A stretch of 24,000 nucleotides of DNA from Candidatus Caldarchaeales archaeon. GTDB taxonomy: Archaea; Thermoproteota; Nitrososphaeria_A; Caldarchaeales; Calditenuaceae. The DNA is taken from assembly GCA_039630085.1 (NCBI GenBank), contig JBCNVM010000007.1:7742-31741 (forward strand), in the 5' to 3' direction. Below, piece by piece: positions 3,384-21,600 of this stretch (the first letter of the stretch is position 1; every line of letters begins with the position of its first letter). A program made the translations under genes and the position numbers. A model generated the notes under the pieces. It was not told where the DNA came from. It saw only the letters and a list, made by a program, of their open reading frames with translations, and did no database searches.

Positions 3384-4730
3384 TTACTTCAGCAGCACTA
3401 TGCCGTCCAGCATGAAGTTGAGCCTCGCGAGTAGAAATTCGTCTGTCGGCATCTCTTTTGCGGGCTTCACCACGGTACCCTTCGGAGGTACCTTCAGGTT
3501 GAGCTGCGGTATTTCGATCCCCTCGCCACTGCTGACCAGCTCGTTCTCATAGAACGGGTCCCAAGCGCCGCTCATCATCTGAGCCCTCCTGAGCTCTATG
3601 AGTTTCAGTACCCTCTCGGGGATGAGCGGTCTCGCCTTCGGGCTGATCGCCTCGAGCCCCACCTTCATATCGTTCTGTAGGTCGACTGCCGGCAACTTGG
3701 TCTGGCCTGGCATGATCGGATTGTTCTCCGGCAGCGAGATGTGTGTGTTCATGCCCAAGAAGTAGATCCTGTCGGGGTTAGTAGTGCCCGCGAGGTACTC
3801 CTTCAGGATCCGGTCGAAGAGGACCTCCCATCTGGTGTCGAAGGATACGGCAACCGTGTCGGTGGTAGACCACTTGTAGAGTCCCACCACGTCCGTGTCC
3901 TTACCTACGAACCAGATCTTTTTCTCCTCCGCGACCCTGAGGGGCTCGACCGAGTCCGTGTAATGGGTCAGGACATCGACCCCGGCGTCCACTAACGCAA
4001 GCGATACCTCCTTCTCCTTGGGCGGATCGAACCACTCGCCGACGTATTTGATGTACAGCGTCGCGTTAGGGTTAGCGTCCTTGATCCCCAAGTAGAACGC
4101 GGCCATCCTCCTGAAGTTCTGCACGGCTGCCGGCCCCACTGCTATGCCGATCTTGTTCTTGCGCGTTATGGCGCCTGCGATCAGTCCCTCGAGGTACATC
4201 GCCTGATACTGTCTGATGAAAACCCTCATGAAGTTCCTTCTCGAAGAGACGTCGCTCCCGACGATGCCGAGGAAGTAGACGTTGGGGTTTTCGTCGGCTA
4301 TCCTGTGGAACGCGGGGACTGCCGCGGGCTCCCAGCTCCCGAAGATCACGTTGGCCTTGTTGACGGTGATCAGGTCCCTGGCCGACGATATCGGGTCCTT
4401 GCCCTTCAGGATAACACCCTCGTCGCGGACGTAGTCGAACCAGTTGTAGATCTTCTTCAGCCTCTCCGCGGCCATCACCTGGCGCCCGTCCCACGTCGAG
4501 CCCTCGACGTATCCTCCTAGGACCATCCCCAGAACGACCTTATTGGTCGCTTGAACCTCACGGGTCACGGTTGTCGTGAAGGCCCTCGTCTCGGTCACAG
4601 TCCGAGCTGGAGCTGCAGAGCCCCCAGCGAAGTATCCCCCAACAGCTCCCACGACTCCAGCGCCAACGGCGGCCGCCGCGACCTTTCCGGCAGTCGAGAT
4701 GGCCTCCCTTCTCGTTACCCTTCTAGTCAC
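3384..4730 (-). CDS. BMP-family (PnrA/Med-like) ABC substrate-binding protein with Tat-like signal/anchor
   Basis: 448-aa ORF with GTG start at 4730. The N-terminus has TRREAIS followed by the hydrophobic stretch AAAAVGAGVVGAVGG, then a Thr-rich linker (TVTETRAFTTTVTRE). The body has BMP-like blocks (AMYLEGLIAGAITRKNKIGIAVGP, FDPPKEKE, DAGVDVLTHY). It is convergent with the permease genes. Confidence 0.75.
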   Translation of the reverse strand: MTRRVTRREAISTAGKVAAAAVGAGVVGAVGGYFAGGSAAPARTVTETRAFTTTVTREVQATNKVVLGMVLGGYVEGSTWDGRQVMAAERLKKIYNWFDYVRDEGVILKGKDPISSARDLITVNKANVIFGSWEPAAVPAFHRIADENPNVYFLGIVGSDVSSRRNFMRVFIRQYQAMYLEGLIAGAITRKNKIGIAVGPAAVQNFRRMAAFYLGIKDANPNATLYIKYVGEWFDPPKEKEVSLALVDAGVDVLTHYTDSVEPLRVAEEKKIWFVGKDTDVVGLYKWSTTDTVAVSFDTRWEVLFDRILKEYLAGTTNPDRIYFLGMNTHISLPENNPIMPGQTKLPAVDLQNDMKVGLEAISPKARPLIPERVLKLIELRRAQMMSGAWDPFYENELVSSGEGIEIPQLNLKVPPKGTVVKPAKEMPTDEFLLARLNFMLDGIVLLK

Positions 4731-4749
4731 GCGAAACGCGCTCCGATGG

Positions 4750-4768
4750 TTTTATTTAACCTTTTTAC
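4750..4768 (-). promoter_or_regulatory. TATA-like box upstream of the binding-protein gene
   Basis: The minus strand reads GTAAAAAGGTTAAATAAAA about 20-38 nt upstream of GTG 4730. It is the only AT-rich element in the 43-nt gap after the CoxL-like stop. Confidence 0.4.
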
Positions 4769-4773
4769 ACTAA

Positions 4774-7098: not shown

Positions 7099-7111
7099 AT
7101 GACGCCGGTCA

Positions 7112-7150
7112 TTGATTCTATTATTTATGTTTATTCTTTGATATAATAGT
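7112..7150. promoter_or_regulatory. AT-rich divergent promoter region (TATA-like boxes on both strands)
   Basis: The sequence ttgattctattatttatgtttattctttgatataatag is embedded in GC-rich DNA. The minus-strand ACATAAATAA lies about 25-35 nt upstream of ATG 7098. Confidence 0.45.
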
Positions 7151-7305
7151 TTTGCAGTCGTATGCCACATCGGAGGCGGTTCGCGTCTTCCCGTTCCACT
7201 GCTGCAGCAGGGCTCGCCTCGAACGCCGTCATGATGCGATTCTTTGCGCGGTCTCCGGGCCGAACTCGCGAACCTTTTTCCCGGAGAGGGAACGCGTAGC
7301 GCGCG

Positions 7306-8157
7306 ATGAAGTCCGGCGCGCTGAGCTACGACGAGGGCTACAGGCTGCTGTCGGAAGGCGGCGGAACCGTCGAGGCTCTGGGGAGCAGGGCGGCATACGT
7401 GAGGACGCCCTCCGAGGATGTTGTGATACTGACCGATCGACCTCTGACGCGCTATTCGGTCTCCCTCTTCGACTCTTGGGAGGACTTGAGGAAGGTCATC
7501 GAAGTGGGCGACCGCGTCTCGATCGAGCGGTCGACGCTGACGATCGGAGCTGAGCTCCGCGTGCCGTTGAGGGTACGGGGTCTCTGTTCGAGGGTGACGG
7601 GCCGCTCTGATCTCAGCCCAGAGTCCCTGAGCTCGGCGATCAGTTATTTCCGGGCGCTCGCTTCAGTCGACGAGCGCGACCCGGTTGTGGAGCGAGGCGT
7701 AGAGATCCTCAGGAGCAGCGCGAGTGCCGACGCTCTCTGCGAGTCCCTTAAGGAGGTCGTCGGAAAGGGCAGGGGGTACACGCCGGTCGGCGACGACTTC
7801 GTTTCGGGGGTCATGGTGGCCTTCAAGTTACTTGGCCGCGAATCTGACTTCCGTCCGCTCGTAGAGTTCGCAAAGTCGCGTTCGAGGTGGCCCAGCTGGA
7901 AAATGATGGAGCACTCCCTTCACGGGTGCACATTCCTTTCGGTCATGTCGCTCTGTGCCTCGATCGCAAAGGGGTCTGACCCAACTCCACATGTGATGAG
8001 TTCACTTAGGATGGGCAGCTCAACGGGGCTTGCCGTTTTGACAGGGCTTTTTGAGACGTTGTTTTTGTATTACAGGAGTTTGTCTAATATGTTTTTGAGG
8101 TCGTCCTCGATTTCCGCAGGTGGGCTCCATTCGACGTCGACGACTTCCACACCCTGA
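7306..8157 (+). CDS. DUF2877-like protein (YlbF/AllH family)
   Basis: 283-aa ORF. The GKGRGYTPVGDDFVSGV motif matches the G-x-G-x-G-x-TP-x-GDD-x-x-x-G signature I associate with DUF2877. It sits next to FdrA and DUF1116 genes, as in bacterial fdrA-ylbE-ylbF loci. The last ~29 codons are antisense to the 51-aa ORF and look low-complexity. Confidence 0.6.
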   Translation: MKSGALSYDEGYRLLSEGGGTVEALGSRAAYVRTPSEDVVILTDRPLTRYSVSLFDSWEDLRKVIEVGDRVSIERSTLTIGAELRVPLRVRGLCSRVTGRSDLSPESLSSAISYFRALASVDERDPVVERGVEILRSSASADALCESLKEVVGKGRGYTPVGDDFVSGVMVAFKLLGRESDFRPLVEFAKSRSRWPSWKMMEHSLHGCTFLSVMSLCASIAKGSDPTPHVMSSLRMGSSTGLAVLTGLFETLFLYYRSLSNMFLRSSSISAGGLHSTSTTSTP

Positions 8158-8225
8158 CTTCGGAGGCTCTCGGAGAATATTGACACGCCGATGCAGAGCA
8201 CCTTTCCGATCCTCTCCGGCGTCAT
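8070..8225 (-). CDS. Small protein (51 aa) equivalent to the C-terminal tail of bacterial FdrA; not in the supplied ORF track
   Basis: Hand translation gives MTPERIGKVLCIGVSIFSESLRSQGVEVVDVEWSPPAEIEDDLKNILDKLL. Its ATG (8223-8225) overlaps the FdrA stop TGA (8222-8224) as ATGA. It is collinear with the E. coli FdrA C-terminus as I recall it (VINIGLRSFALELQS...PVVHYQWSPVAGG...LARLLERL). Confidence 0.6.
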   Translation of the reverse strand: MTPERIGKVLCIGVSIFSESLRSQGVEVVDVEWSPPAEIEDDLKNILDKLL

Positions 8226-9769
8226 GTCACCTCACTCAGGACGAACCTCTCGATTAAGTGATGGAGCACCGATGCGTCCTCCTCCGCGCACGCCGCTGCG
8301 AACGCCGCGGTCACCGCGTTGGAGCCGGTGGTTATGAGCGGGTACTTCGAGAGCTCCCGTGTTTGATCCCATTGGGGGTCTTCGCCGGTTCCGACGACCC
8401 TCGCCGAGACCCTCTTGCGCTCTCCGGTCGCTAGCGCAGGCCCGACCTCCTCCAAGGTCCTCGAGACTGCGTCCACGGGAGCTCCGTACCCGATGATCAG
8501 GTCGAACGCGATCGATCCTGTCTCTGGTGATGCCAGCTCTTGAGTTATCCGCCTGTTCCTCAGCGACGGGTCTATTATCGGATGAACTCTTCCGGCGGTG
8601 AACTCCTCCGACCCGTAGTCAACCACGGTCGCCCCCCTAGAGCGCAGCGGATCGTCTAGCTTCTTCGTCCAAGGCAGCTCCAAATTCGAATAGACCTCGA
8701 TCCCCGCCTCGCTCCACAGGAATGCCGTCTCGGTCGCAAGCGTTCCGCCGCAGTAGAATCCGCGGGGATGACCTCCTCCGTCGACCTTCTCCTTGAGCGA
8801 GGTCACCTCTCTCTCCAGTGCCGAGAGGGCCTTGCTGTAAGCCTGAGGTGAGACGAGAGAGCAGGCCTTCAGCGCGGTCGCGTGGAGTGTGGGGAGTTGC
8901 GGGTGCTCGCTGATCTTCTCCTTGTGTCCGAGAAGGCAGAGCAGCAGGGGCTTGCCGATCTTCGCGTCTTCGAGGACCCGTTTCACGAGTTCCGCATCTG
9001 ACTGCTTGGCCAGCAGCACGATGACCTTCGTGCTCCGGTCTCCGTCGAGGAGCCTCAGCGACTCGCGCGTCATCAGCCCTCCCACGGCTCTGGTCATGTC
9101 GCGTCCTCCCACTCCGATCGCGTGAGAGATGCCCACTCCCATGTCGTGTAGTATGACCGACAACTCTTGGATGCCTGAGCCGGATGAGGCCACTATCCCC
9201 ACCGGGCCCCTGATGACCCTGTTCGCGAACCCGAAGCCCACGCCCCCAATTATCGAAGTCCCGGCCTCCGGCCCCATCACTAGGAGGTTCCTCGCGGCGG
9301 CCTCGCGCTTCATCGCTACCTCCACCTCTATCGGGACGTGATCGCTGAAGACGAAGAGGTTGACTCCCCTCTCGAGGAGCTTGAATGCGACGTCCTTCAC
9401 GTGCTGTCCGGGTATCGATATCGATGCCATTCTTATGTCCGGGTTCTCGTGCAGAGCGTCGTCTATGCTCGCGTATCTGGCGGTCCGGGGCTTCATCTGG
9501 AACAGGACCTCTCTCGCCTTCCTCAGGACGCCTTCCGTCAGCCCGACTCCCTTAAGTGCGATCACGATATCGTTTGGTCCTGCACGGTCGCCCTCCGGCG
9601 TGAGGATCCCCTGCGACCTCAGGAGCTCCTTATTGGCTTCGGTGGCCATGACGACCGCGACCTCGATCACCCCGGGCAGCCTCTTGATCGCCTCGGAGGC
9701 TTCCATCAGCTGCACCGAATCCCGATAAAGGCCTTGCACTACCAAGTTGATTACGTCAGTTGAACCCAC
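8222..9769 (-). CDS. fdrA: FdrA-type acyl-CoA-synthetase-like protein (succinyl-CoA-synthetase-alpha-like fold; AllF family)
   Basis: Collinear blocks match E. coli FdrA: YRDSVQLM, LVMGPEAGTSII, GIVASSGSGIQEL, SHAIGVGGRDM, GRVHPIIDPSLRN, VVGTGEDPQ. The ORF is open to TTG 9793, which lies inside the TATA-like box. GTG 9769, about 25-30 nt downstream of that box, is the more plausible start. Confidence 0.85.
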   Translation of the reverse strand: MGSTDVINLVVQGLYRDSVQLMEASEAIKRLPGVIEVAVVMATEANKELLRSQGILTPEGDRAGPNDIVIALKGVGLTEGVLRKAREVLFQMKPRTARYASIDDALHENPDIRMASISIPGQHVKDVAFKLLERGVNLFVFSDHVPIEVEVAMKREAAARNLLVMGPEAGTSIIGGVGFGFANRVIRGPVGIVASSGSGIQELSVILHDMGVGISHAIGVGGRDMTRAVGGLMTRESLRLLDGDRSTKVIVLLAKQSDAELVKRVLEDAKIGKPLLLCLLGHKEKISEHPQLPTLHATALKACSLVSPQAYSKALSALEREVTSLKEKVDGGGHPRGFYCGGTLATETAFLWSEAGIEVYSNLELPWTKKLDDPLRSRGATVVDYGSEEFTAGRVHPIIDPSLRNRRITQELASPETGSIAFDLIIGYGAPVDAVSRTLEEVGPALATGERKRVSARVVGTGEDPQWDQTRELSKYPLITTGSNAVTAAFAAACAEEDASVLHHLIERFVLSEVT

Positions 9770-9790
9770 AATCGATGCGATCTGAAAGTG

Positions 9791-9806
9791 CAATATTTAT
9801 ATTAGT
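9791..9806. promoter_or_regulatory. Shared quasi-palindromic TATA element between divergent fdrA and cyclase genes
   Basis: The sequence caATATTTATATTag contains AATAT..ATATT inverted halves. It is the only AT-rich element between GTG 9769 (-) and ATG 9820/9832 (+), and is about 25-35 nt from each. Confidence 0.5.
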
Positions 9807-9831
9807 GTTCCGAGGCGTGATGATCGCGACC

Positions 9832-10629
9832 ATGTCTGCCGTTGTAGATCTGTCAAAGGTAAAAATATATGACTTATCCCAGCCGACCAGCGCGAGAGCT
9901 CCGCCCTTCATGTACTACCCTCCGTTCAAATGGACGTGGATCAAGAGGCTCGGAGAGCACGGCGTCAACGCGCAGTACATCGAGGGACCGCTTCACACGG
10001 GTACGCACTTCGACGGCCAGCTGCACTTCATGACGGGAGGGAAGGACATGGCCAGCATCGACGTCAGCTACTTCATCGGGGAGGGGATCATAGTTGACAT
10101 CAGCAAGCGCGTCGGCGACTACGACATCTACACAAGCGACATGATCGAGGAGGCGGCGAGGGAGGCAGGCCTCCGGATAAAGCCCGACGACATACTGCTC
10201 ATCTACACGGGTTACAGCCGTTACGCGTGGTGCGGTCCCGAGCCCGACGAAGTGCGGTACATGTGTAAGCACCCGGGCCCCGACATCAGGTTCGCGAGGT
10301 GGTGCATCGAGAAGAGGATCAGGTGGCTCGGCGTCGACGCGATGTCGCAGGACCACCCTCTGAACACCGTCGTCAGGAGGGCGAGGCCCGACCTGGTAGC
10401 GGAGGCCGAAAGGAAGTGGGGAAAGAAGATCGACGAGGTGCTGCCCTGGCCCGAGAACTATCAGGTGATGCACACGATGCTTTTCCCGAGGATGATCCTT
10501 CATGTCGAGAACCTAGGAGGGGACATCGACAAGGTCGTCAACAAGAGGTGCCTGATCATAGCGCTGCCGTTCAAGTTCGAGGGAGGAGAGAGCGCGTACT
10601 GCCGAGTGGTGGCCCTCACCTCGGAATGA
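9832..10629 (+). CDS. Putative-cyclase family metal-dependent hydrolase (kynurenine formamidase / isatin hydrolase-like)
   Basis: The HTGTHFDGQLHF motif matches the family signature HxGTHxDxPxH, and there is a downstream GVDAMSQDHP block. The track ORF starts at TTG 9760 inside fdrA. ATG 9832 (or ATG 9820) fits the TATA spacing. The stop lies 6 nt before the DUF1116 ATG. Confidence 0.75.
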   Translation: MSAVVDLSKVKIYDLSQPTSARAPPFMYYPPFKWTWIKRLGEHGVNAQYIEGPLHTGTHFDGQLHFMTGGKDMASIDVSYFIGEGIIVDISKRVGDYDIYTSDMIEEAAREAGLRIKPDDILLIYTGYSRYAWCGPEPDEVRYMCKHPGPDIRFARWCIEKRIRWLGVDAMSQDHPLNTVVRRARPDLVAEAERKWGKKIDEVLPWPENYQVMHTMLFPRMILHVENLGGDIDKVVNKRCLIIALPFKFEGGESAYCRVVALTSE

Positions 10630-10635
10630 GCAGGC

Positions 10636-11898
10636 ATGGAGACGCTTAAGGAGGAGATCGAGAGGGCGAACGATAAGTGCCTCGATCTGATGATGGAGGC
10701 GAGGCCCCTCCTCGTGGACATCGTAGAGGCGCGGAAGGTCATACCCTTCCTCGCGAAGGACAAATGCCTCACGCATGCGGGCCCGCCGATTAGCTGGGAT
10801 AGGGCCAGCGGCCCCCTGAGGGGCGCGATAATCGGAGCCGCGATCTACGAGGGCTGGGCCGAGAACGAGAGAGAGGCGATCAGGCTGGCGGAGAGGGGTG
10901 AGATAGTCCTCGAGCCCAATCACCATCACTCGGCGGTCAGTCCCATGGCCGGCGTCATCTCGCCGTCGATGAAGGTCTTCGTGGTCAGGGACGGTGACCT
11001 GAGGACTTACAGCAACCTCAACGAGGGGCTCGGTAAGGTCATGAGGTACGGCGCCTACTCCCCCGACGTTTTGGACCGCCTCCGCTTCTTGAACGAGGTC
11101 GTCGGCCCCGTTCTCTCCGACGCGGTGAAGGAGTACGTCCGTGATAAGGGGGGAATGGATCTGAAGAGCATAATGGCCCAGGCGGTCCATATGGGCGACG
11201 AGTGTCACAACCGGAACATTGCCTCGACTTCCCTGTTCTACAGAGAGATATCGTCCTATGTTATCGACTCGACTGACAAAGAGACAGCAAAAATTGTGCT
11301 TAAGACGATCGACTCTAACATCTTATTCTTCCTTAACATGGCAATGGCGGCCTGCAAGCTGATGGCCGATAGGGCCCACGGCGTCAAGTACAGCACGATC
11401 GTGACCACGATCGCGAGGAACGGCACGGACGTCGGCATCAGGGTGAGCGGGCTCGGAGACCAGTGGTTCACAGCTCCGGCGACCATACCTAGGGGTCTGT
11501 ACTTCTCAGGGTTCAGCGAGTCCGACGCAAACCCCGACATAGGCGACAGCACGATAACCGAGACAGTCGGGCTCGGTGCGGCCGCTTTGGCGGCGAGCCC
11601 GGCGATCGTGAGGTTCATCGGCGGGGACGCGAAGACGGCGATCGAGATCACCAACAGGATGGCGAAGATCTGTCACGGCAGGCACCGCTACTTCACGATC
11701 CCCTATCTAGAGTTCGAGGGTACCCCAGTTGGGATAGACATCAGGAGGGTTCTGCGACTCGGTCTTCCGCCTGTGGCCGACACGGGCATAGCGCATAGGG
11801 AGGCCGGAGTGGGGCAGATAGGCGCAGGGATCGTCGAGCTGCCGATCGAGCCCTTCAAGCAGGCCCTGAGGAAATACGCCGAGGCCTACGGGATCTGA
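10636..11898 (+). CDS. DUF1116 protein (YlbE/AllG family)
   Basis: 420 aa. It is collinear with E. coli YlbE as recalled: LTHAGPPISW, EGWAENEREA, NHHHSAVSPMAG, NLNEGLGKVMRYGAY, MGDECHNRNIAS, FFLNMAMAACK, GIRVSGLGDQWFTAP, ANPDIGDSTITET, DTGIAHREAGVGQIGAG. Confidence 0.85.
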   Translation: METLKEEIERANDKCLDLMMEARPLLVDIVEARKVIPFLAKDKCLTHAGPPISWDRASGPLRGAIIGAAIYEGWAENEREAIRLAERGEIVLEPNHHHSAVSPMAGVISPSMKVFVVRDGDLRTYSNLNEGLGKVMRYGAYSPDVLDRLRFLNEVVGPVLSDAVKEYVRDKGGMDLKSIMAQAVHMGDECHNRNIASTSLFYREISSYVIDSTDKETAKIVLKTIDSNILFFLNMAMAACKLMADRAHGVKYSTIVTTIARNGTDVGIRVSGLGDQWFTAPATIPRGLYFSGFSESDANPDIGDSTITETVGLGAAALAASPAIVRFIGGDAKTAIEITNRMAKICHGRHRYFTIPYLEFEGTPVGIDIRRVLRLGLPPVADTGIAHREAGVGQIGAGIVELPIEPFKQALRKYAEAYGI

Positions 11899-11986
11899 AC
11901 ACGACAGCCCTCTGTAGGGCCCTTCGCCAATCGATCAGCCGACCGGAGCCTTAGTCGGACCTCTCGCCGACGAGCAGGGCTGTTCT

Positions 11987-12010
11987 GTGGACCGGGCGGG
12001 ATTCGAGCCC
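11987..12010 (-). repeat. Inverted partial copy of the tRNA-Ala 3' end (T-loop to discriminator/first C)
   Basis: 11987-12006 (gtggaccgggcgggattcga) is the exact reverse complement of tRNA positions 14189-14208 (20/20). The match is 23/24 when extended to 12010. The GC content drops immediately after 12010. Confidence 0.85.
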
Positions 12011-12071
12011 AGATTTACTCACCGGCTTTCCTTATTACTCCGAAAAAAGGTAGGTAAGTTCACAGAAAAAG

Positions 12072-12080
12072 TTATAAATT
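12072..12080 (+). promoter_or_regulatory. TATA box for the HAD gene
   Basis: TTATAAATT lies 24-32 nt upstream of ATG 12104, consistent with a leaderless transcript. Confidence 0.4.
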
Positions 12081-12103
12081 TCTACGTGCAAGGGTTTATA
12101 ATA

Positions 12104-12973
12104 ATGAGCAGAGTATTCCATAATACAATCGCCCTCATAATGGATTGTGACGATACGCTGTGTGAGGACACCACTGACGCGTGTCTAAAGCAGATCGGAA
12201 TAGAAGATCCTCTGGAGGACTTCTGGAAAAAGAGAGTAAAACCCAAGGTCAAAGATGGCTGGGACCCGCCACTAGCGTATATGACCGAATTCATAAATGT
12301 GGCCAAGGAAAAAGGTACAAAACTCACAAAGGATTTTTTGAGAAAGTAGGACGAAATCTGAAATTTTATCCCGGAGTTCCAAACTTTTTCGATGAGTTAA
12401 GGAATGAGGTCAAAGCTATTAGCAACGAGTACGAAATCGACATAAGGATTGAGTTTTATGTTATTAGCTCAGGTTTTGAAGAGGTCATAACGGCGAGTCC
12501 TCTAAACTCCTATGTAACCGAAATTATGGATGTACATTTTACATTGATGAAAACGGTCGTGTAATATGCCCGAAATCGATAGTAACGTTTACGGAAAAAA
12601 AAACAAATTTGTGTTCGCGATAAACAAGGGCATTAACAAGATGATTTTACGAAGTGACCCTGGTAGAGTTAATGACACGATAAGTGAGGAGAATAGAAGG
12701 ATTCCCTTCAAGAACATGATCTACATAGGAGACGGACCAACAGACATACCCTGCTTCTCGCTTATCACAAGGAACGGGGGGCGAGGATTAGGAATTATAC
12801 AGCCCGAAAAGCCAGAAAGGGGGGCTCCATTATGGAAAGGACGAAGAATAACTGTGGGACCGTACCGCCCTAATTATGAGCAAGGATCAGACCTCCGACT
12901 TATGATAAAGGCTTTGATAAGAGACATCTCAGCGAGTATTTATGAGGAGTCGAAAATGTCATATCGCCCGTGA
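12104..12973 (+). pseudogene. HAD-superfamily hydrolase gene disrupted by three single-nucleotide deletions
   Basis: HAD motif I (IMDCDDTL) is in frame 2. Motif II (YVISSG) is in frame 1. The segment YGCTFYIDENGRVICPKSIVTFTEKK is in frame 3. The K..KG region and motif IV (YIGDGPTDIP) are back in frame 2. The frame switches are at about 12346 (GG), about 12525 (TT) and the A9 run at 12595-12603. The track shows three fragments: 11987..12349, 12181..12564 and 12566..12973. Confidence 0.75.
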
Positions 12974-13025
12974 CATTCATTAACAAATAGATGTCGTCGC
13001 GATCTCGATCGAATAAACCATCATT

Positions 13026-13037
13026 ATTTTATAAAAT
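13026..13037. repeat. Perfect 12-nt palindrome ATTTTATAAAAT, copy 1 (TATA-like)
   Basis: Read directly from the sequence. It is self-complementary and preceded by ATCATT, as is copy 2. Confidence 0.7.
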
Positions 13038-13126
13038 TCTCGTAGAGCGGAGCACGTTGACCTATCCTGTTAAATACGTAGACGAAACATCGCATACTCG
13101 ACGCATTCGGAAAAATCATTTACACT

Positions 13127-13138
13127 ATTTTATAAAAT
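13127..13138. repeat. Perfect 12-nt palindrome ATTTTATAAAAT, copy 2 (TATA-like)
   Basis: An identical 12-mer lies 101 nt downstream of copy 1. The context is ATCATTtacacTATTTTATAAAAT. Confidence 0.7.
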
Positions 13139-14134
13139 GTTGAATACAGTATAGAGAGCTAATTTTATTTTAGCATTAGTGACTGATTTTAAGTGTTGTT
13201 TTGTTGATCGCTCTTCCTTTCAGTATACTGGTCGCAGCATTTGGTTAAACCTGTCCGGAGGAAAAGGCAAGTCGTTTCGGTGGCTTCTGGGTTTGGATTA
13301 GCCATGGGGTTGATAGGTGGAATTTTCGGACGCGGGTTGGGCTGCTTACATAGTTTACAATAAGGTCATCTGGGATTATTTCGTTGTTGGCTGTTCATAG
13401 TTTGTGACATTATAATAATTTAGAGAACTACAAGAAAGATCTCACGTCGTCTCAAGCTTGTGGAACGGGAGGTTCGAGGGTAACTGTTCGAGTTTTGACG
13501 GCTCGGTGGGAAATGGTCTGCCGAAGCTGTGGAAACATCCCGACACTAAGCTTTAGAGCGTATAACATCTGTGGTTCAAGGCTCTACATGGAGAGATAGG
13601 TGTAAAATACCCTGTCTGCAAAGGTTCCCTATCCTGCACCACAGAAACCGTTTGAAAGGAAGGACAGAACAGGCTCTTAGAAGAATAGCAGATTGTGTGA
13701 GGAGATTTGGGACACCCGGATAACCCTAAATCGTGTTTCAGTCTCGCTCAAAAAGCTCATCAGAAAGTTCTTGAAATTGATTTTTCTGATTTACGGTAAC
13801 AACCAGCTTTTTCGTTGAGAAAACCTAAACGCTATAGTTGTGAAGATGTCTGTGAATACTGAGAGATGAGGAGGTTGGAGAGGAAAACGCAGTCTCAGAG
13901 GTGCCGAAAAGTGTCTCTGAAGAGCGTTGATCGGGAAGTTGCGTTCGCCTTGCTTCCTGACAGCGACAGTATTATCACTTCGGCGTTGATACTCCTGAGA
14001 AATCTGGCTCGAAATAGTCAACCCGTCACAAAAGGATGTGAGACGAAAAAAGCAGGAGTCATAGGAACGAATTAAGGCGGAGAAAGCCCGATTACATTAA
14101 AACTAAAATTCTCCGAGTGAGAGATGCGATAAGG

Positions 14135-14210
14135 GGGCCGGTAGATCAGCGGTATGATCGCCCGGTTGGCGTCCGGGAGGTCGCGGGTTCGAATCCCGCC
14201 CGGTCCACCA
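14135..14210 (+). tRNA. tRNA-Ala (anticodon GGC) with genomically encoded CCA
   Basis: Hand-folded cloverleaf. Acceptor gggccgg/ccggtcc has a G3:U70 pair, the Ala identity element. D stem is gatc/gatc. Anticodon stem is cccgg/ccggg with loop ttGGCgt. Variable loop is aggtc. T arm is gcggg-ttcgaat-cccgc. Discriminator is A, followed by CCA at 14208-14210. An AT-rich box (cattaaaactaaaatt) lies about 25-40 nt upstream. Confidence 0.9.
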
Positions 14211-14240
14211 ATCCTGTGATGCAATAAGGGTAACCATGAA

Positions 14241-14281
14241 GAGGGAAAAATAGAGGAGGAACGCTTCGTCGGATTCTCCTC
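14241..14281 (-). terminator. Stem-loop plus T-tract downstream of the LAGLIDADG gene
   Basis: The minus strand reads GAGGAGA-aatccgacgaagcgt-TCCTCCTC followed by TATTTTTCCC, about 30 nt after the stop at 14312. T-tracts are the usual archaeal termination signal. Confidence 0.4.
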
Positions 14282-14311
14282 AGAGTTCTTCGGAAGCATC
14301 TGCACCGAAAT

Positions 14312-15391
14312 TTACTCCTCCTCGTCGGGAAGTATCACGAGTGCGACATCCCCGTCGGAGTTCACTAGAGGTACACTCGGAGCCTTTTCCTCAGCGACTT
14401 CCTCTTCAACGATCTCCTCATCGTCTCTCGGTTTTCGCCAACGTCTTCTCAGCCGGAGCATTCTCTCCCTTACTATCTCTTCGAGCCTGCGCAGCTTCCT
14501 CTCAATAGAAAACCCGACCTTTTCCAGAAACAGCGGCAGGCAGGCATTACGTATTCGGATCCTATAACAGTCCTTACTAGACACGCCCCCTCCGATCTCC
14601 ATTGATGTGCCGGCTGGTATGTGTAGGTACGGACCTGTGGACATTATTCCTAGGTCCTCCAACAACTCCTGTGCCCACCTCAGCACATCGACGTTTGTAT
14701 TGTACAGTATTACGCCGCTCTTACCGACACTTCCCTCCGAGTCGAAGAAACCCCGGAGGAAAGCGACCTTTGTCTGTTCATCGTGCTCGACGAACTTCCG
14801 TATTCGTTCGATGTCTCTATCAATAAGAAGCTGGGTCAATATTATGTCCCGCACTCTAACGACATAAAACGTCTTCCCGTCTCTAACCATTTCTAGAATC
14901 GGCGGAGGATCCCTGTTCAGGACTTTCGCCAGCGCCTGTGCGAAGGACATGGCGAAGTCCAGATCCCGGACAATTAGTTGGATCACACATGCCCATTTAC
15001 GTCTATAATGGAGCAGATAGACTGACCCGTCCCCGAAGACCACGCCTATGACATAGGCTAGTTCCGGAGACGGCTCCAGCTCGTCGAGTGACCGGAACCT
15101 CCGACGCTGGGATAATCCCATCCGATAGGGCGACCTCTCCCCTCTCATCCATCTTACTACGGTTGACTGATATATTGTCACCCCGAAGGTTTCATAAATA
15201 ATTTCCACGATCTGTTTGACGCTGTATCCTTGTTCTATCAGCTGTAGGGCTACATGATAAATCTGGATCATGAGGGCTTTGGGTCTCCTTCGGCGCTTTT
15301 TCGTGGTCCCTCCTTTCTTAGATCGTCGGGTCTCGCCTCTCGGGCCAAGAGACGAGACTGCTAAGTCCGGATCCACCAAGCCATCCGACAT
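14312..15391 (-). CDS. Free-standing double-motif LAGLIDADG homing-endonuclease-like protein with N-terminal HTH and acidic C-terminal tail
   Basis: There are two LAGLIDADG motifs about 95 aa apart, LAYVIGVVFGDGSV and VAFLRGFFDSEGSV, and both keep the acidic catalytic position (D, E). The N-terminus has a basic KKRRRRPK stretch plus a resolvase/transposase-like HTH (GYSVKQIVEIIYETFGVTIYQSTVVRWMRG). A strong SD, GGAGGTGA, lies 6 nt upstream of ATG 15391. Confidence 0.8.
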   Translation of the reverse strand: MSDGLVDPDLAVSSLGPRGETRRSKKGGTTKKRRRRPKALMIQIYHVALQLIEQGYSVKQIVEIIYETFGVTIYQSTVVRWMRGERSPYRMGLSQRRRFRSLDELEPSPELAYVIGVVFGDGSVYLLHYRRKWACVIQLIVRDLDFAMSFAQALAKVLNRDPPPILEMVRDGKTFYVVRVRDIILTQLLIDRDIERIRKFVEHDEQTKVAFLRGFFDSEGSVGKSGVILYNTNVDVLRWAQELLEDLGIMSTGPYLHIPAGTSMEIGGGVSSKDCYRIRIRNACLPLFLEKVGFSIERKLRRLEEIVRERMLRLRRRWRKPRDDEEIVEEEVAEEKAPSVPLVNSDGDVALVILPDEEE

Positions 15392-15576
15392 TTCCTTTCA
15401 CCTCCGGGGGTCGAACTCCCTTCCCCGAGCAGGAAGAAACCCTCCCGCATGGGCAGGAGGGTCCCCCTGTCGAGGGCCAGACCACCTGAGGGGTGAATTT
15501 AAGCCTCGCTAGCGGCGTCGGTCCGAGACCTAGGGAACGGGATGGGCTTTATCCGGCAGGAGCTCGGCGACCGGTC

Positions 15577-16287
15577 GTGAAAGATTGGACCCTTCCCGTG
15601 GTGGTTCTGAACTTCAAGGCGTACAGGGAGGCGGTGGGAAGCGGCGCAGAGAGGCTCGGTTACGTCGCGGAGACCGTCTCGAGGGAGCTGGGCGTCACGG
15701 TCGCGGTCGCGGTCCAGCCGACCGACGTCTACAGGCTCTCCGGCAGGCTCGGGATTCCCGTCCTGGGACAGCACGTCGATCCCTACGAGGAGGGGAGCTG
15801 GACGGGGCACGTGACCGCGTTCGCGCTGAGGGAGGCTGGGGCAGCGGGGAGCCTCCTGAACCACTCCGAGAGGAGGATAGGGCTCTCCGAGATCGCGGCC
15901 GCGGTCGAGCTCCTCAGGAAGGAGGGCCTGAAGTCGATCGTCTGCGCCGACACGCCGCTGACCAGCAGGGCCGCCGGAGCCCTGAGGCCGGACATGGTCG
16001 CGGTCGAGCCCCCGGAGCTGATAGGGACCGGGATATCGGTCTCGAGGGCGAGGCCGGAGGTCGTCACCGACGCGGTGAAGATGCTGGCCTCCGTCGAGCC
16101 GAGCGTCTCGCTCCTCTGCGGCGCGGGCATCTCGACCCCGGAGGACGTCTACAGGGCGATAGAGCTGGGAACGGTGGGAGTGCTGGTCTCGTCGGCGTTC
16201 GTGAAGTCCAAGGACCCCCAGCAGACCCTAACGGGCTTCTGCGAGGCGGCGCTGAAGGCCTACGAGCGGAGGGTCAGTAGATCCTGA
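15577..16287 (+). CDS. tpiA: Triosephosphate isomerase (archaeal type)
   Basis: Motifs VVVLNFKAY, GSLLNHSERR, AVEPPELIGTG and LCGAGIS are present. The track ORF starts at GTG 15493 with 28 non-conserved codons. GTG 15577 (or GTG 15595) gives the typical length of about 230-236 aa. Confidence 0.85.
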   Translation: MKDWTLPVVVLNFKAYREAVGSGAERLGYVAETVSRELGVTVAVAVQPTDVYRLSGRLGIPVLGQHVDPYEEGSWTGHVTAFALREAGAAGSLLNHSERRIGLSEIAAAVELLRKEGLKSIVCADTPLTSRAAGALRPDMVAVEPPELIGTGISVSRARPEVVTDAVKMLASVEPSVSLLCGAGISTPEDVYRAIELGTVGVLVSSAFVKSKDPQQTLTGFCEAALKAYERRVSRS

Positions 16288-16918
16288 TCTCGACCAGCTG
16301 GACCGGGACGTAGGAGCTGCTTGGGACCACCGCGGCCACCCTCTCCTCCACCTCGACCTCCACCTCCTGAATCGCGCCCGGGACCAGCGACTGTCCGAAG
16401 TAGCCGAACTCCTCCCTGTAGGGAGCCAGCCTGACGGCCGAACCGTCGGAGAGGTACGCGGCGATCACCGGCGAGGAGGCGAAGGCGCGGGACGCCTCGG
16501 GGACCGCGATGAGGGCCTCGATCTTGGTGCCGTCGTCGCCCACTGTCAGCCTCACCTCCTCGAGCCTGATTCTCCTTACCTCGAACGTCAGCTCGACGGT
16601 CAGGTCCCTCTCGGCGCGGACCTCCAGCACCACGACCGCGAACCTCGAGTCCGGGAGCTTCACGTAGGAGCTGTACCTCCCGGGGGCCGCGCTGAACCTG
16701 AAGGTCCCGTCCTCCCCGGTCACCCCCCTCTCGAGCCCCAGGACCACCAGAGCGCCCTCGACGGGCCTCGGTCGGCCGTCCTCCACCATCCGGACCCTGA
16801 ACGTCACCTCCCTTGCCAGCGAGAGGCCGAAGCCCTCGCCGATGCTCCCCGACGAGTTGAAGACGGTCAGGAGGAGCATCAGGGCCGCGCCGATCGCGGC
16901 CGCCCCGGCCCACCTCAT
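16274..16918 (-). CDS. Secreted or membrane-anchored hypothetical protein, beta-rich (carboxypeptidase-regulatory-like domain suspected)
   Basis: 214 aa. It has an N-terminal signal/anchor (AAAIGAALMLLLTVF) and a GALVVLGLERGVTGEDGTFRFSAAPGRY pattern. A TATA-like GTTAAAGG lies about 28 nt upstream of ATG 16918. It is preferred over the RG-rich overlapping ORF 16260..17306. Confidence 0.55.
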   Translation of the reverse strand: MRWAGAAAIGAALMLLLTVFNSSGSIGEGFGLSLAREVTFRVRMVEDGRPRPVEGALVVLGLERGVTGEDGTFRFSAAPGRYSSYVKLPDSRFAVVVLEVRAERDLTVELTFEVRRIRLEEVRLTVGDDGTKIEALIAVPEASRAFASSPVIAAYLSDGSAVRLAPYREEFGYFGQSLVPGAIQEVEVEVEERVAAVVPSSSYVPVQLVEIRIY

Positions 16919-17021
16919 ACCCCGCTCGGGGTCGGGGCTCAGCCTTTAACGTGTCGCCGCGGCCCCCGGCGATCCTAGCGGCGCGGAAACTCAAATCTCC
17001 GGGCATCGAGGTGGATCCGTG

Positions 17022-17732
17022 ATGACGAAGGCCGTCATCCTCGCGGGAGGGTTCGGGAAGAGGCTGAGGCCGCTGACGGACACGCTCCCCAAGCCGCTGC
17101 TGAGGGTCGCGGAGAGGCCGATCATCGAGTGGCAGATCAGGTGGCTCGCCTCCCACGGCATCAAGAGCGTCGTCGTCTGCGCCGGCTACCTCAAGGAGAA
17201 GATGGTCGAGGAGCTGGGGAGCGGCGCTAGGCTCGGGGTGAGGCTGGGCTTCGTCTTCGAGGACGAGCCTCTGGGGACCGCAGGAGCCCTCAAGAACGCC
17301 GAGCACTTCCTCGCCGGAGAGAGGTCCTTCCTGGTCCTGAACGGCGACGTCCTGACCGACCTCGACCCGACGTACGTCCTCTCGGCAGCCGAGCGCTACC
17401 TCGCCTCGATGGCGGTCGTGCCGCTGCCCTCACCGTACGGGATCGTCGACCTCGAGGAGTCGACCGGACGGGTGAAGGGTTTCAGGGAGAAGCCGATGCT
17501 CGGGGAGTACTGGATCAACGCGGGCGTCTATGCGCTCAGGGGCGAGCTGCTGGCGGAGCTTCCGGAGAGCGGCGACCTCGAGAGGGAGGTCTTCCCGAGG
17601 CTAGCAGCGAGGGGACAGCTGGTGGCGATCAGGTACGAGCACTGCTACTGGAAGTCCATAGACTCCCACAAGGACCTGGAGGAGGCCTCGGCTCACTTCA
17701 GGGAGCCTGAGAGGTCCAGGGCCATCACGTAG
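17022..17732 (+). CDS. Sugar-phosphate nucleotidyltransferase (NTP_transferase family)
   Basis: The N-terminus has the family signature AVILAGGFGKRLRPLTDTLPKPLL, followed by EDEPLGTAGAL and LVLNGDVL. The start is GTG 17019 or ATG 17022, preceded by GGTGG and a TATA-like AAACTCAAATC. Confidence 0.8.
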   Translation: MTKAVILAGGFGKRLRPLTDTLPKPLLRVAERPIIEWQIRWLASHGIKSVVVCAGYLKEKMVEELGSGARLGVRLGFVFEDEPLGTAGALKNAEHFLAGERSFLVLNGDVLTDLDPTYVLSAAERYLASMAVVPLPSPYGIVDLEESTGRVKGFREKPMLGEYWINAGVYALRGELLAELPESGDLEREVFPRLAARGQLVAIRYEHCYWKSIDSHKDLEEASAHFREPERSRAIT

Positions 17733-18223
17733 GCGTCCTCGCCGTCGAGGTAGTAGTGCTTGATCGTGTCGACGACGGAGAAGCCCAGCGACTCGTACAT
17801 CCTGATCGCGGGGTTGTTGGTGACCCGGACCTCCAGAAAGACCTCGTCGCAGCGGTAGACGTCCCTCATCGCCCTGATCGCCTCCAGCATCAGCGCCCTA
17901 CCTATCCCCCTCCTCCTGTGCTCGGGGAGAACCGCTATCGAGATCACGTGTCCCAGCTTCCTGAACCGGAGCCCTCCGAACTTCGAGAACCCCCTCTCCA
18001 CCCTGCACATGACGTACCCGACTATCCTGCCCTCGAGCTCCGCGACGACGAAGCTCTCGGGATGGGACTTCGCGACGCTGAGGAAGAACGAGTAGGTGTA
18101 GTTCTCGGGCAGGGTCAGCCTGTTGACGTTCATCACGTCCAGCAGGTCCTCCTCCCTGACCGGCCTCAGGACGTACTGCGCGTCCTCGCGCCTAAGCACC
18201 TCCAAGAACGCCAGCCTCCCGAC
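17693..18223 (-). CDS. GNAT N-alpha-acetyltransferase (archaeal Ard1/NatA-catalytic-subunit type; annotated rimI-like in many genomes)
   Basis: It closely resembles Sulfolobus Ard1 as recalled: NRLTLPENYTYSFF, GHVISIAVLPEHRRRGIG, LEVRVTNNPAIRMYESLGF, YYLDGEDAYVMA. The ORF is open to TTG 18292. GTG 18223 fits the TATA-like box near 18255-18270 and the usual length. Confidence 0.8.
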   Translation of the reverse strand, partial: VGRLAFLEVLRREDAQYVLRPVREEDLLDVMNVNRLTLPENYTYSFFLSVAKSHPESFVVAELEGRIVGYVMCRVERGFSKFGGLRFRKLGHVISIAVLPEHRRRGIGRALMLEAIRAMRDVYRCDEVFLEVRVTNNPAIRMYESLGFSVVDTIKHYYLDGEDAYVMALDLSGSLK

Positions 18224-18309
18224 CACGTGAGCCCCCGGACACTTAAGACTTTCCCGGAGACCAATAACTTGATAAGACGGCCATCGGTTCAATCCTCTTA
18301 GGTTCTGCG

Positions 18310-18657
18310 GTGGTGATCTTGTCGTCCTCGGGGGGAGTCTCTCGTCCTAGGAGGTCAACCAAGCAGCCCAAGCCCCAGCCCGCGGCGAAGCGGGAGCCCG
18401 CGAAGGCCCCCGAGGCCGAGCGGGTGGTCGTCGTGGAACTGATGGGGTGGAGGATCGAGCACGAGCTCCTCGACAGCGCAGAGGCCGAGCAGGTCCTCAA
18501 CCGCTACAAGGCTACCCGCAACCAGCTGCCGAAGATCCTGGTCACGGACCCGGTCGTCAGGAAAATGGGCGCTAAGCCCGGCGATATCATAAAAATCACG
18601 AGGACCTCACCTACCGCAGGGTTGACCGTCTACTATAGGGTGGTGGAGGAGGCTTGA
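18310..18657 (+). CDS. rpoH: DNA-directed RNA polymerase subunit H (Rpo5)
   Basis: The C-terminal block is NQLPKILVTDPVVRKMGAKPGDIIKITRTSPTAGLTVYYRVV. The stop TGA overlaps the rpoB TTG start (TTGA at 18654-18657). The start is uncertain: GTG 18310 gives a K/P/A-rich extension, and GTG 18424 or ATG 18442 give a conventional length. Confidence 0.85.
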   Translation: MVILSSSGGVSRPRRSTKQPKPQPAAKREPAKAPEAERVVVVELMGWRIEHELLDSAEAEQVLNRYKATRNQLPKILVTDPVVRKMGAKPGDIIKITRTSPTAGLTVYYRVVEEA

Positions 18658-21600
18658 AGGCCAGGCCATCTCCTGAGTCCCTCACCCACGACGATCTCTG
18701 GGCCGTCGCGAAGGCCATCGTCGAGGAGGAAGGCCTGATCGCGCACCACTTCAGGTCCTACGAGTACTTCGTCAGGGAGGGGCTCGAGAGGCTCCTCAGG
18801 AGCATGAGCCCCCAGGAGATCAAGACGAAGCAGGGCGTCGCGTACCTCTACTTCAGGGAACCCGAGATAGGCCTGCCGACGATAAGGGAGGTCGACGGGT
18901 CGGAGAGGCACTACGTCACGCCCAACGAGTGCAGGCTGAGGAACATCAGCTACACCGCTCCGATCTACGTCAGGGTCACGCTCAAGCTCGACGACCAAGA
19001 GATCGTCAGGAGCGAGAGGGTTCAGATCGGGGTCCTGCCGATCATGGTGAAGTCCTCCGTCTGTCCCCTCAGCAGGATGTCCGAAGAGGAGCTCATCGCG
19101 ATCGGAGAGGACCCCACCGACCCGGGGGGATACTTCATCATCAACGGCTCCGAGAGGGTCATAGTCGCGATCGAGGACCTAGCTCCCAACAAGGTCCTGA
19201 TCACCTCGAAGGAGCAGGACGGAGGAGTCCAGTACTCGGCCGCGGTGATCTCGATCTCCTACGGGAGGCAGAGCAAGGTCGAGGTCACCTACAAGCCCGG
19301 CGGGCCGGTGAGGGTCTTCTTCGCGAAGATCCACAAGGGCATACCGCTGATCGTCATGCTGAGGGCCCTGGGGATGGAGAACGACAGGCAGATCGCGGAG
19401 TTCGTCTCGCCGCTCCCGGAGGTCCAGGAGATGCTTATCGAGAGCTTCAAGGAGGCGGAGGGGATCGAGGACAAGAAGGAGGCCCTGAGGTTCCTGGGGA
19501 ACAGGGTCGCCTTCGGGTACGCGGAGGAGTACAGGATCGAGAGGGCGGAGCAGATGCTCGACAGCAACTTCCTCATCCACCTCGGCACGAACAAGGAGGC
19601 CAGGTTCAAGAAGGCCGTGATGCTCTGCGACGTGGTAGGGAAGCTCCTCGAGACGGCCGCGGGGATCAGGAAGCCGGACGACAAGGACCACTACGCCAAC
19701 AAGAGGCTCAAGCTCGAGTCGCAGCTCCTGACGGAGCTCTACAGGTCCGCCCTCAACAAGCTCATCAGGGACATCAGGTACCAGCTCGAGAGGATACTCG
19801 TAACTAGGCAGCCCATCTCGCTCTCCACGTTCATCAGGCCCGGGATAGTGAACGACGTGGTCCTGACGGCCTTCTCCACGGGCAACTGGCCCGGGGGGAG
19901 GGTGGGAGTCACGCAGATACTCAACAGGACCAACTACCTCGCGACCGTCAGCCACCTGAGGAGGGTCCAGAGCCCTCTGAGCAGGAGCCAGCCCCACTTC
20001 GAGGCCAGGGACCTCCACGGGACCCACTGGGGGAGGATATGTCCAGCCGAGACGCCCGAGGGCGCGAACGCGGGACTGGTCAAGAACTTGGCCCTCGGTG
20101 CAGAGGTCACGGTGCCGCTCCTGAAGGACGAAGAGGAGGGCCTCAGGGAGAGGCTCTGGAAGCTCGGGCTGGTCAGCCTGATGGCGGTCATCGAGAAGAG
20201 GACGGCGGCGAGGAGGAAGGAGCTCAGGACCAAGGTCTACATCAACGACGAGCTGATCGGGTACCACCCTGACGGGAGGAAGCTCGTGAGGGAGCTGAAG
20301 AGGATGAGGAGGAGCGGCGAGGTCAGCCAGTCCGTCAACGTCCTCTTCAGGGAGTACGAACACCTCTCGGAGGTCTACATCTACTCCGACGAGGGAAGGG
20401 TCAGGAGGCCCCTGGTGGTCGTTGAGGACGGCGAGGTCAAGCTCAAGCGGCACATGGCCGAGTCCGTCGCGCAGGGGACGCTGAAGTCGAGGGACCTGAC
20501 AGCGATGGGGGTGATCGAGTACCTCGACGCCAGCGAGGAGGACAACGCCTACACGGCCCTCAGGCCGGAGGACGTCACCAAGTCCCACGACTACCTCGAG
20601 ATAAGCCCGCTGATGATGATGGGCGTCGTGGCCGGGATCATCCCCTTCAGCAACCACAACCAGTCGCCTAGGAACGTCTACGAGGCCTCGATGGCGAAGC
20701 AGGCCCTCGGCCTCCCCGCGATCTCGTATCCGGTCAGGACCGACAGCAGGCTCCACGTGATGATCTACCCGCAGAAGGCCCTCGTCAAGACGAAGGTGAT
20801 GGACCTCCTCGGGCTCGACAGGAGGCCGATAGGTCAGAACTTCGTCGTCGCGGTGCTGACGGGATACGGCTACAACATCGAGGACGCGGTCGTGCTGAAC
20901 AGGTCCGCGATCGAGAGGGGACTCGCGGTCACGATGAGCTACAGGACCTACGAGGTCGAGGCCAGGCAGTACCTCGGCGGCGAGAAGGACAGGGTCGCGG
21001 TGCCGGACCCGAACGTCAGGGGCTACAGGGGCGAGCAGTACTACAGGGTCCTCGACAGGGACGGCCTCGCGGTCCCCGAGTCCGAGGTCACCGACGGCAT
21101 GGTCCTCGTCGGGGTCGTCAGCCCGCCCAGGTTCATGGAGGAGTACGTCAGGACGCCGGCCAGGGAGATGGTCTGGAGGGACGCCTCGGAGGCGGTGAGG
21201 CCCTCAGAGGTCGGGATCGTCGACGAGATATTCGCCTCGAGGACCGTCGAGGGCAACGCGCTCATCAAGCCCAGGGTCAGGGCCCTCTGCTTCCCCGAGA
21301 TCGGCGACAAGTTCGCTTCCAGGCACGGCCAGAAGGGCGTGATCGGGATGGTCTTCCAGCAGGCCGACCTCCCCTACACCGAGAGCGGGATCGTCCCGGA
21401 CCTCATCATCAACCCGCACGCCTTCCCGTCCAGGATGACGGTCGGCCAGCTGATCGAGAGCCTCGCGGGGAAGCTCGCAGCGCTGAGGGGCGAGCCGGTG
21501 GACGGCTCTCCGTTCGTCGGGAAGGGCCTCGAGGAGATCAAGAGGGAGCTGGAGGAGCTGGGGTTCAGGAGCACCGGGACCGAGGTGATGTACGACGGCC

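Follow-up and report, generated by a model that had tools for sequence, protein, structure and literature searches.

The tRNA-Ala locus and its low-GC segment

The DNA analysed here (hereafter the window) is a 24,000-nt stretch of contig JBCNVM010000007.1 from an archaeon of the order Caldarchaeales. The sole tRNA gene that ARAGORN detects in it is a tRNA-Ala(GGC) gene on the plus strand (14135-14210), which faces, tail to tail and across a gap of 101 nt, an intact gene for a putative homing endonuclease. Both genes lie in what is very probably a composite foreign segment of low guanine-plus-cytosine (GC) content, about 3.4-3.5 kb long, that interrupts within its T-arm the tRNA-Ala(GGC) gene originally present at this site and provides a replacement on the opposite strand.

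The 3' end of the plus-strand tRNA gene has an inverted counterpart to its left. The two arms of this 24-nt repeat (11987-12010 and 14185-14208) are complementary at 23 of 24 positions, the first 20 nt being perfect, as described in an earlier note on this DNA. A 22-mer from the tRNA 3' end, searched with up to three mismatches, matches just two sites in the window, which are the two arms, and none of 100 shuffled sequences contained a match. An Rfam search of both strands of 11500-15600 (E ≤ 1) returned only the tRNA-Ala(GGC) (64.2 bits) and nothing at 11987-12062; 11987-12010 is therefore a fragment, as the earlier note had supposed. Neither ARAGORN nor Rfam finds a functional tRNA or the half of a split tRNA on either strand of 11987-12062, where only 24 nt match, starting inside the T-stem.

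GC content is 0.637 at 11700-11999, 0.333 at 12011-12103 and 0.42 at 12104-14134. The fall at 12011 (0.64 to 0.33) and the left border placed there in the earlier note are thus confirmed. By contrast, the right limit that it had set at the 5' end of the tRNA does not hold, since foreign-looking DNA runs on through 14211-15391 (GC 0.47-0.52), and a GC of 0.65 is reached beyond 15549. Overall, the insert has a GC of 0.33-0.52, compared with 0.60-0.65 for the host. It extends to about 15391-15486 and the right arm of the repeat is therefore internal, with about 1.3 kb of foreign DNA past it.

The endonuclease gene (14312-15391, minus strand) has an intact reading frame and encodes 359 aa with two LAGLIDADG motifs and an N-terminal helix-turn-helix (HTH) region; it matches Pfam PF14528. 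The best solved-structure match of the endonuclease core is I-DmoI (family profile, E 3e-12). The catalytic motifs GDG and DSEG, acidic residues included, are invariant in 30 homologues. Coordinates of all features are collected in Table 1.

Table 1. Features of the tRNA-Ala locus in window coordinates
Feature	Position	Strand	Basis
allG (DUF1116, oxamate carbamoyltransferase subunit); left host flank, synteny anchor	10636-11898	+	Pfam PF06545, E 3.5e-88; collinear with L001 6633-7895
Probable orphaned 3' end of the resident (ancestral) tRNA-Ala(GGC)	11987-12010	-	23/24 inverted match to 14185-14208
Left end of the insert, AT-rich, upstream of the HAD-like gene	12011-12103	+	GC 0.333; L001 similarity ends at 12010
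HAD-superfamily phosphatase pseudogene with three frameshifts, decayed cargo	12104-12973	+	Frame broken across three frames; homologues; weak Pfam HAD-family matches
Low-GC DNA without recognisable gene	12974-14102		GC 0.425; open reading frames of at most 76 aa; nothing in Pfam or Rfam
TATA-like box CTAAAATTCT, 22 nt upstream of the tRNA probably imported	14103-14112	+	Same 10-mer near the L001 tRNA-Ala
Complete tRNA-Ala(GGC) gene, probably imported	14135-14210	+	ARAGORN; Rfam 64.2 bits
Intact HTH-LAGLIDADG endonuclease gene, 359 aa	14312-15391	-	Pfam PF14528; I-DmoI profile match
GC-rich spacer (GC 0.66) of uncertain origin, from endonuclease start codon to old promoter	15392-15486		No significant tRNA similarity
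BRE/TATA promoter remnant of the resident minus-strand tRNA-Ala gene	15487-15513	-	Matches L003 and L001 upstream regions
tpiA, right host flank; collinear with relatives again from about 15549	15577-16287	+	Pfam TIM

The resident gene and its probable replacement

Relatives were chosen by a TpiA scan of species-representative genomes, and the nearest ones fall in the Calditenuaceae (Caldarchaeales, formerly 'Aigarchaeota'). Three loci are compared here: L001 from the closest genome (TpiA 92%), L168 from an independent sample of the same species as L001 (99.7% identical) and L003 from a more distant relative (TpiA 84-86%). By blastn, window 4000-11900 aligns with L001 5-7897 and 15549-24000 with L001 10007-18460 at 93.7% identity; both flanks are collinear and the differing part is limited to 12011 to about 15548. 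L001 carries an intact minus-strand tRNA-Ala(GGC) gene about 88-90 nt past the allG stop codon, then its promoter, a DUF4234 gene, sppA and tpiA, and L168 has the same arrangement. L003 carries a minus-strand tRNA-Ala(GGC) gene, the DUF4234 gene, a decaying sppA and tpiA, with another gene left of the tRNA. Since all three relatives have tRNA-Ala(GGC) on the minus strand, this arrangement appears to be ancestral and that of the window derived. The insert, including the endonuclease gene, is missing from L001, L168 and L003. The earlier note's view of a lineage-specific foreign insertion bordered by a tRNA fragment is thus upheld: no minus-strand tRNA lies at 11987-12062 and the relatives have no such segment. 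It had treated the 24-mer as a copy of the intact gene, a polarity that the minus-strand gene of the relatives reverses.

Indeed, the 24-mer at 11987-12010 is best read as the leftover 3' end of the original minus-strand tRNA-Ala(GGC) and not as a duplicate of the gene at 14135. It comprises three T-stem bases, the T-loop, the 3' strand of the T-stem, the 3' strand of the acceptor stem, the discriminator and one further base, and its single mismatch (T54 to C) is in the T-loop, 3 nt from the junction. Its distance from the allG stop codon (about 89-90 nt) is the same as that of the 3' end of the intact L001 tRNA. Similarity to L001 covers the 24-mer and ends at 12010, inside the T-stem, which places the junction at 12010/12011. 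The positional argument relies on the flanking gene and the distance; homology of the spacer between allG and the tRNA, which gives no significant alignment with L001 (p = 0.11), plays no part in it.

A second remnant of the resident gene lies on the other side of the insert. On the minus strand, 15487-15513 matches the region upstream of the minus-strand tRNA at 23 of 27 positions in L003 and 15 of 16 in L001, and none of 500 shuffles reached either score. The TATA box of the resident promoter survives, along with the 9 nt that follow it. Hence, neither the tail nor the promoter of the old gene has moved or turned, and about 3.5 kb now separates them. No gene body is detectable between the two. 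For instance, 15392-15486 does not resemble the tRNA significantly, whichever way it is read, and no direct-repeat partner was found right of the endonuclease gene; the predicted fold of this spacer is unremarkable (z = -1.15). The orphaned promoter points at the endonuclease gene, whose start codon lies about 100-120 nt downstream with no other AT-rich box between, and may now drive its expression.

The plus-strand tRNA-Ala(GGC), for its part, appears to be a newcomer that arrived with foreign DNA. It has the G3:U70 alanine identity pair and an encoded CCA, and it is intron-free, unlike the L001 gene (intron of about 16 nt). Its D-loop and one compensatory pair of the anticodon stem differ from those of both L001 and L003, the tRNA bodies of which agree with each other despite the greater distance of L003. 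Its 3' 31 nt are identical to L001. The TATA-like box at 14103-14112, which is probably the promoter of the imported gene, is unlike the TATA box of the surviving ancestral promoter; the same 10-mer also occurs 21 nt upstream of the L001 tRNA-Ala (0.8% of shuffles reached the score in a local-alignment shuffle test). The presence of two distinct promoter copies, the ancestral one unmoved, therefore argues against a simple flip of the old gene. The imported tRNA presumably supplies the alanine tRNA function. Because the resident gene is broken and a complete gene was carried in on the opposite strand, the inverted repeat is the tail of the old gene set against the new gene and not a pair of element ends. 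As to introns, the orthologous genes at L001 7983-8070 and L168 1-83 have one of about 16 nt in the anticodon loop, and the L003 and imported genes have none.

Some changes also affect the flanks. The DUF4234 gene and sppA, which were looked for across the whole window, are absent; they are cleanly gone at about 15514-15548 (corresponding to L001 8111-9990). Since this site is right of the surviving promoter, the two genes were lost either in a deletion of their own or within a complex event. All that is left of sppA in L003 is a C-terminal remnant (2834-3181). Furthermore, identity to L001 at four-fold sites is 0.63-0.71 in the three genes left of the insert and 0.44 one gene further left, compared with 0.76-0.85 in six genes on the right. 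This synonymous step (7306-11898 versus 15577-22040) could be a sign of co-conversion, but codon bias or a variable region of older date would explain it just as well. At the tRNA-Ala locus of L003 the whole allG cluster is missing, and the allG/fdrA-like/cyclase cluster may be an older acquisition there. Because of the identity step and the different left neighbour in L003, the tRNA-Ala locus is a long-standing boundary of recombination or gene exchange in this clade, which is compatible with entry either by an endonuclease or by an integrase.

The rest of the insert carries few recognisable features. The HAD-type gene has three frameshifts. One of them lies at an A9 homopolymer (12594-12604) and could be a sequencing or assembly slip; the other two are not at homopolymers. 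Once repaired, the 290-aa protein shows 59-61% identity over 97-98% coverage with full-length homologues of 286-292 aa, as well as weak matches to HAD families in Pfam. The homologue with the best-documented context lies in L081, an archaeal contig of 46% GC, flanked on both sides by full copies of tRNA-Arg(CCT) in direct orientation. This context indicates that the HAD cargo gene also travels in tRNA-associated islands. In L081 9551-12489, one full tRNA-Arg(CCT) copy has an acceptor-stem mismatch, a partial copy lies at 11510-11541 and 11109-11138 repeats the tRNA end together with its downstream flank; the region looks like nested or tandem insertions at one tRNA. According to the list of open reading frames (ORFs), Pfam and Rfam, 12974-14102 contains no recognisable gene, recombinase remnant or RNA family. 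No remnants of the neighbours of the HAD homologues (L081 and L083) or of the small ORF of L084, a locus described below, were found in the island. A weak Rfam match to the C/D-box sRNA sR32 at 14297-14353 (18 bits, for a gathering score of 40) was dismissed as chance.

A family of endonuclease genes beside tRNA genes

Relatives of the endonuclease were surveyed in 80 metagenomic loci (L088-L167), in which tRNA genes were predicted by ARAGORN with intron detection. A convergent tRNA gene, lying from a 4-nt overlap to 163 nt past the stop codon, is present in 33 of the 80 loci. Three further loci (L129, L136 and L144) have a tRNA overlapped by the ORF call, and three others (L135, L145 and L146) have a T-arm hairpin on the correct strand that ARAGORN missed. 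Hence, at least 39 of the 80 loci have a tail-to-tail tRNA partner. Assuming roughly one tRNA per 30 kb, the chance of such a pairing was estimated at less than 1% per locus. The partners belong to about 15 tRNA identities (Asp, Ser with two anticodons, Phe, Lys, Met, Ile, Arg, Thr, Gly, Gln, Asn, Glu, Tyr and Trp). ARAGORN labels are inconsistent for intron-containing tRNAs (the orthologous L111 and L143 are called Asp and Tyr) and were not used as evidence of movement. Moreover, the homologue alignment shows several predicted C-termini reading 'GGIRT' or 'GLEPRT', which are the translated antisense of the tRNA T-arm.

Close paralogues lie beside different tRNAs: those next to tRNA-Met and tRNA-Ser(TGA) are 88.9% identical and those next to tRNA-Gly and tRNA-Glu 82% (range 82-89%). 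In the first case, a 1.07-kb unit that is 91% identical between the two loci ends at the tRNA 3' end, this tRNA being tRNA-Met in one locus and tRNA-Ser(TGA) in the other. The unit (L109 3862-4963 and L093 about 3877-4967) consists of the endonuclease gene and about 140 nt upstream, which gives approximate boundaries of the mobile unit. The two tRNAs have the same acceptor stem and differ by one compensatory T-stem pair.

The closest homologue (L084, 48% identity) sits between a tRNA gene and a displaced copy of the 3' end of that tRNA. This copy is direct and 35 nt long (69-103 and 1762-1796), with 83% identity and compensatory T-stem differences; the tRNA, cut by the contig end, is probably an intron-containing tRNA-Pro(GGG). 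L086 (1084-1938 and 2494-3343), like L085, has its intact endonuclease gene opposite a decayed inverted copy (71-85% complementary to it), and tRNA-Phe comes directly after the intact gene. Inverted tRNA fragments were found in none of the 37 related endonuclease-tRNA loci. Exact look-ups with proteins encoded in the window and with homologues present only in NCBI gave no match.

The gene of the window shows several features of a free-standing homing endonuclease, namely an intact ORF with catalytic motifs, presence/absence polymorphism and copies at similar sites. The family is nearly absent from viral contigs, with one weak match in IMG/VR. We therefore describe its members as putative mobile chromosomal endonuclease genes that land against tRNA 3' ends in hot-spring Nitrososphaerota. 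This tRNA-hugging HTH-LAGLIDADG family appears undescribed: no description of it was found in the literature searched, and a published survey of integrated elements in Thaumarchaeota mentions neither 'LAGLIDADG' nor 'homing endonuclease'.

Possible routes of entry and known systems

Overall, we lean slightly towards the explanation that the resident gene was broken and that an imported tRNA-endonuclease module took its place by endonuclease-driven entry. The new tRNA would have arrived together with the HTH-LAGLIDADG gene or would have been joined by it later. This endonuclease, or a relative, would have cut the resident gene in the T-arm and the break would have been repaired by uptake of a module comprising the endonuclease gene and a working tRNA gene. 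With the resident gene lost, the cell would have become dependent on the imported copy. Endonuclease-driven entry is favoured because the only intact protein-coding gene of the insert encodes a homing endonuclease of a tRNA-tied family, because the resident gene was interrupted within the T-arm and a mismatch lies three bases away from that junction, because neither an integrase nor a direct repeat is present and because SegB of phage T4, discussed below, is a worked precedent. Taken by itself, this mode of entry is put forward tentatively, as one that may well turn out otherwise. The earlier note had mentioned an endonuclease-driven route as an example; the intact LAGLIDADG gene, which it had missed, makes that route plausible, while the mechanism of entry is only inferred.

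Several points weigh against this explanation. Both the cleavage activity of the 359-aa protein and its target are predictions from sequence. The imported and resident T-arms are identical, and the model gives no reason why the imported copy should be immune. Classical homing depends on homology at both flanks, and it would neither invert the gene nor leave an orphan tail. Furthermore, the presence of close paralogues beside different tRNAs suggests that, as a rule, no tRNA accompanies the endonuclease gene when it moves. The insert may be a composite put together in more than one event, since its HAD part and endonuclease gene differ in GC (0.42 versus 0.52). No donor was found: the search of the island against phage, plasmid and viral collections proposed in the earlier note gave no DNA match in phage or plasmid collections except the tRNA itself. 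Finally, the species of the window is represented by a single genome.

The alternative that survives best, although we consider it unlikely, is a decayed element with a tyrosine integrase whose att site was the last 24 nt or more of tRNA-Ala. It would have entered the resident gene, leaving the 24-mer as attR, and would have carried a whole tRNA-Ala by chance; the integrase, the reconstituted tRNA, the DUF4234 gene and sppA would have been deleted later. Such losses would be tolerable because the element brought its own tRNA-Ala. The junction lies in the 3' part of the tRNA gene with the element on the expected side, the placement seen in SSV-, pNOB8- and pTN3-type integrations. Moreover, the closest HAD homologues are in the tRNA-Arg(CCT) locus of L081, where direct full and partial tRNA repeats form an integrase-type signature, the decay of the HAD gene implies that time was available for deletions, and the different left neighbour in L003 and the step in synonymous divergence at the island mark a recombination hot spot. 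However, Pfam detects no integrase, transposase or Cas1 domain in the island ORFs or in stop-masked six-frame translations of 12991-14140, in keeping with the earlier note, which saw no integrase. Neither a direct repeat nor a reconstituted minus-strand tRNA by the surviving promoter is present, and this history needs at least two precise deletions in addition to an element that chanced to carry its own target tRNA.

A post-integration inversion, in which the plus-strand tRNA would be the original gene flipped via tRNA-derived repeats, was raised in the earlier note and is improbable. Inversions catalysed by integrases between att and non-att sites are documented in Thermococcales, the precedent being the integrase of the Thermococcus plasmid pTN3 (PMC5495485). 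The 10-nt TATA-like box shared, at the same spacing, by the plus-strand tRNA and L001 and the identity of their 3' 31 nt would fit a flip. But the ancestral promoter has stayed at 15487-15513 in its original orientation, unlike the box of the plus-strand gene, and thus did not accompany the gene; the tRNA body is unlike those of both orthologues, which agree mutually. In addition, recombination between inverted tRNA copies would by logic give two full genes and no 24-nt stub, and no recombinase is present.

An assembly artefact, that is, a chimeric join at the tRNA sequence, is very improbable. The source is a contig of a metagenome-assembled genome, tRNA sequences are classic points of misjoining and the HAD gene has three frameshifts. 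Against this, the two points at which the contig passes out of and back into host sequence are syntenic and lie about 3.5 kb from each other, the second of these junctions is in unique sequence by the old promoter and not at a repeat, and the sequence that follows the first is not tRNA. Least credible of all is a transposon-like element with tRNA-derived terminal inverted repeats, also proposed in the earlier note: it would account for a 24-nt inverted repeat (23/24) with arms 2.2 kb apart, but the right arm is internal, followed by about 1.3 kb more of foreign DNA, the left arm is exactly where relatives hold the native tRNA, no transposase or Cas1 was found and none of the 37 related loci has an inverted tRNA fragment.

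tRNA genes are classic landing sites of elements bearing an integrase, which normally repair the gene that they enter. At this locus, the resident gene was destroyed, its function presumably passed to an imported copy, and a homing-endonuclease gene is attached where an integrase is missing. Two known themes are thus combined, mobile DNA that targets tRNA genes and homing endonucleases encoded by free-standing genes, and the recurrent pairing of the family with tRNA genes points to a second, endonuclease-based exploitation of tRNA genes in archaeal chromosomes. If true, this would be a testable source of tRNA fragments, displaced tRNA ends and turnover of tRNA genes in these archaea, and it would provide a set of natural LAGLIDADG enzymes with specificities for tRNA genes. 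It would also give an extra reason for selection on disruption of tRNA genes, by introns or split genes, as protection.

Compared with archaeal integrations by tyrosine recombinases (SSV1, pNOB8 and pTN3 types), the locus is similar in that low-GC foreign DNA abuts a partial tRNA 3' end at a hot spot that varies between relatives. It differs by the lack of an integrase, by the inverted orientation of the partial copy with respect to the intact gene and by the resident gene, which is not reconstituted: a separate complete gene replaces it. I-DmoI, from an intron of the Desulfurococcus 23S rRNA (PDB 1b24, 2vs7), shares with the endonuclease two LAGLIDADG motifs in one chain, which is monomeric in I-DmoI. 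The family described here departs from I-DmoI, an intron-encoded enzyme that targets rDNA, in that its genes stand free next to tRNA genes and its proteins bear an additional helix-turn-helix region at the N-terminus.

Another member of the order, Caldiarchaeum subterraneum, has a small multi-copy insertion of 1.87 kb at tRNA-Thr(GGU), described by Sugahara et al. (2012, PMC3293823). It left behind a piece of the tRNA, and the product of its single ORF (about 270 aa) is presumed to act on DNA. Family members from Caldarchaeum have 271 aa, a length close to that of this ORF, which may or may not belong to the family. The geometry reported for that insertion is different, with a direct fragment from the 5' side of the tRNA and an ORF placed upstream of the tRNA and on its strand.

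The closest parallel in mechanism would be SegB, a free-standing GIY-YIG homing endonuclease encoded in the tRNA gene cluster of phage T4, whose recognition site includes a conserved motif of the tRNA T-arm (PMC2330249). Homing by SegB spreads the neighbouring tRNA genes and erases the markers of the tRNA region of the recipient (PMC2330249). The window resembles the SegB system in that its endonuclease gene is lodged beside, and linked with, a tRNA gene, and in that the break in the resident tRNA gene falls within the T-arm. SegB differs in being a GIY-YIG enzyme of a phage with demonstrated activity, whereas here a LAGLIDADG protein of predicted activity is encoded in an archaeal chromosome; moreover, SegB homing uses flanking homology and leaves no inverted orphan. 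We offer as a speculation, more doubtful than the history proposed for this single locus, that a large family of free-standing endonucleases of the HTH-LAGLIDADG type exists in hot-spring Nitrososphaerota (the Caldarchaeales and related lineages), with tRNA genes as landing sites and probably as cleavage targets. This family would be an archaeal chromosomal counterpart of SegB, and its member in the window would have knocked out an essential resident tRNA gene, put an imported copy linked to the endonuclease gene in its place and so made the host dependent on this selfish module.

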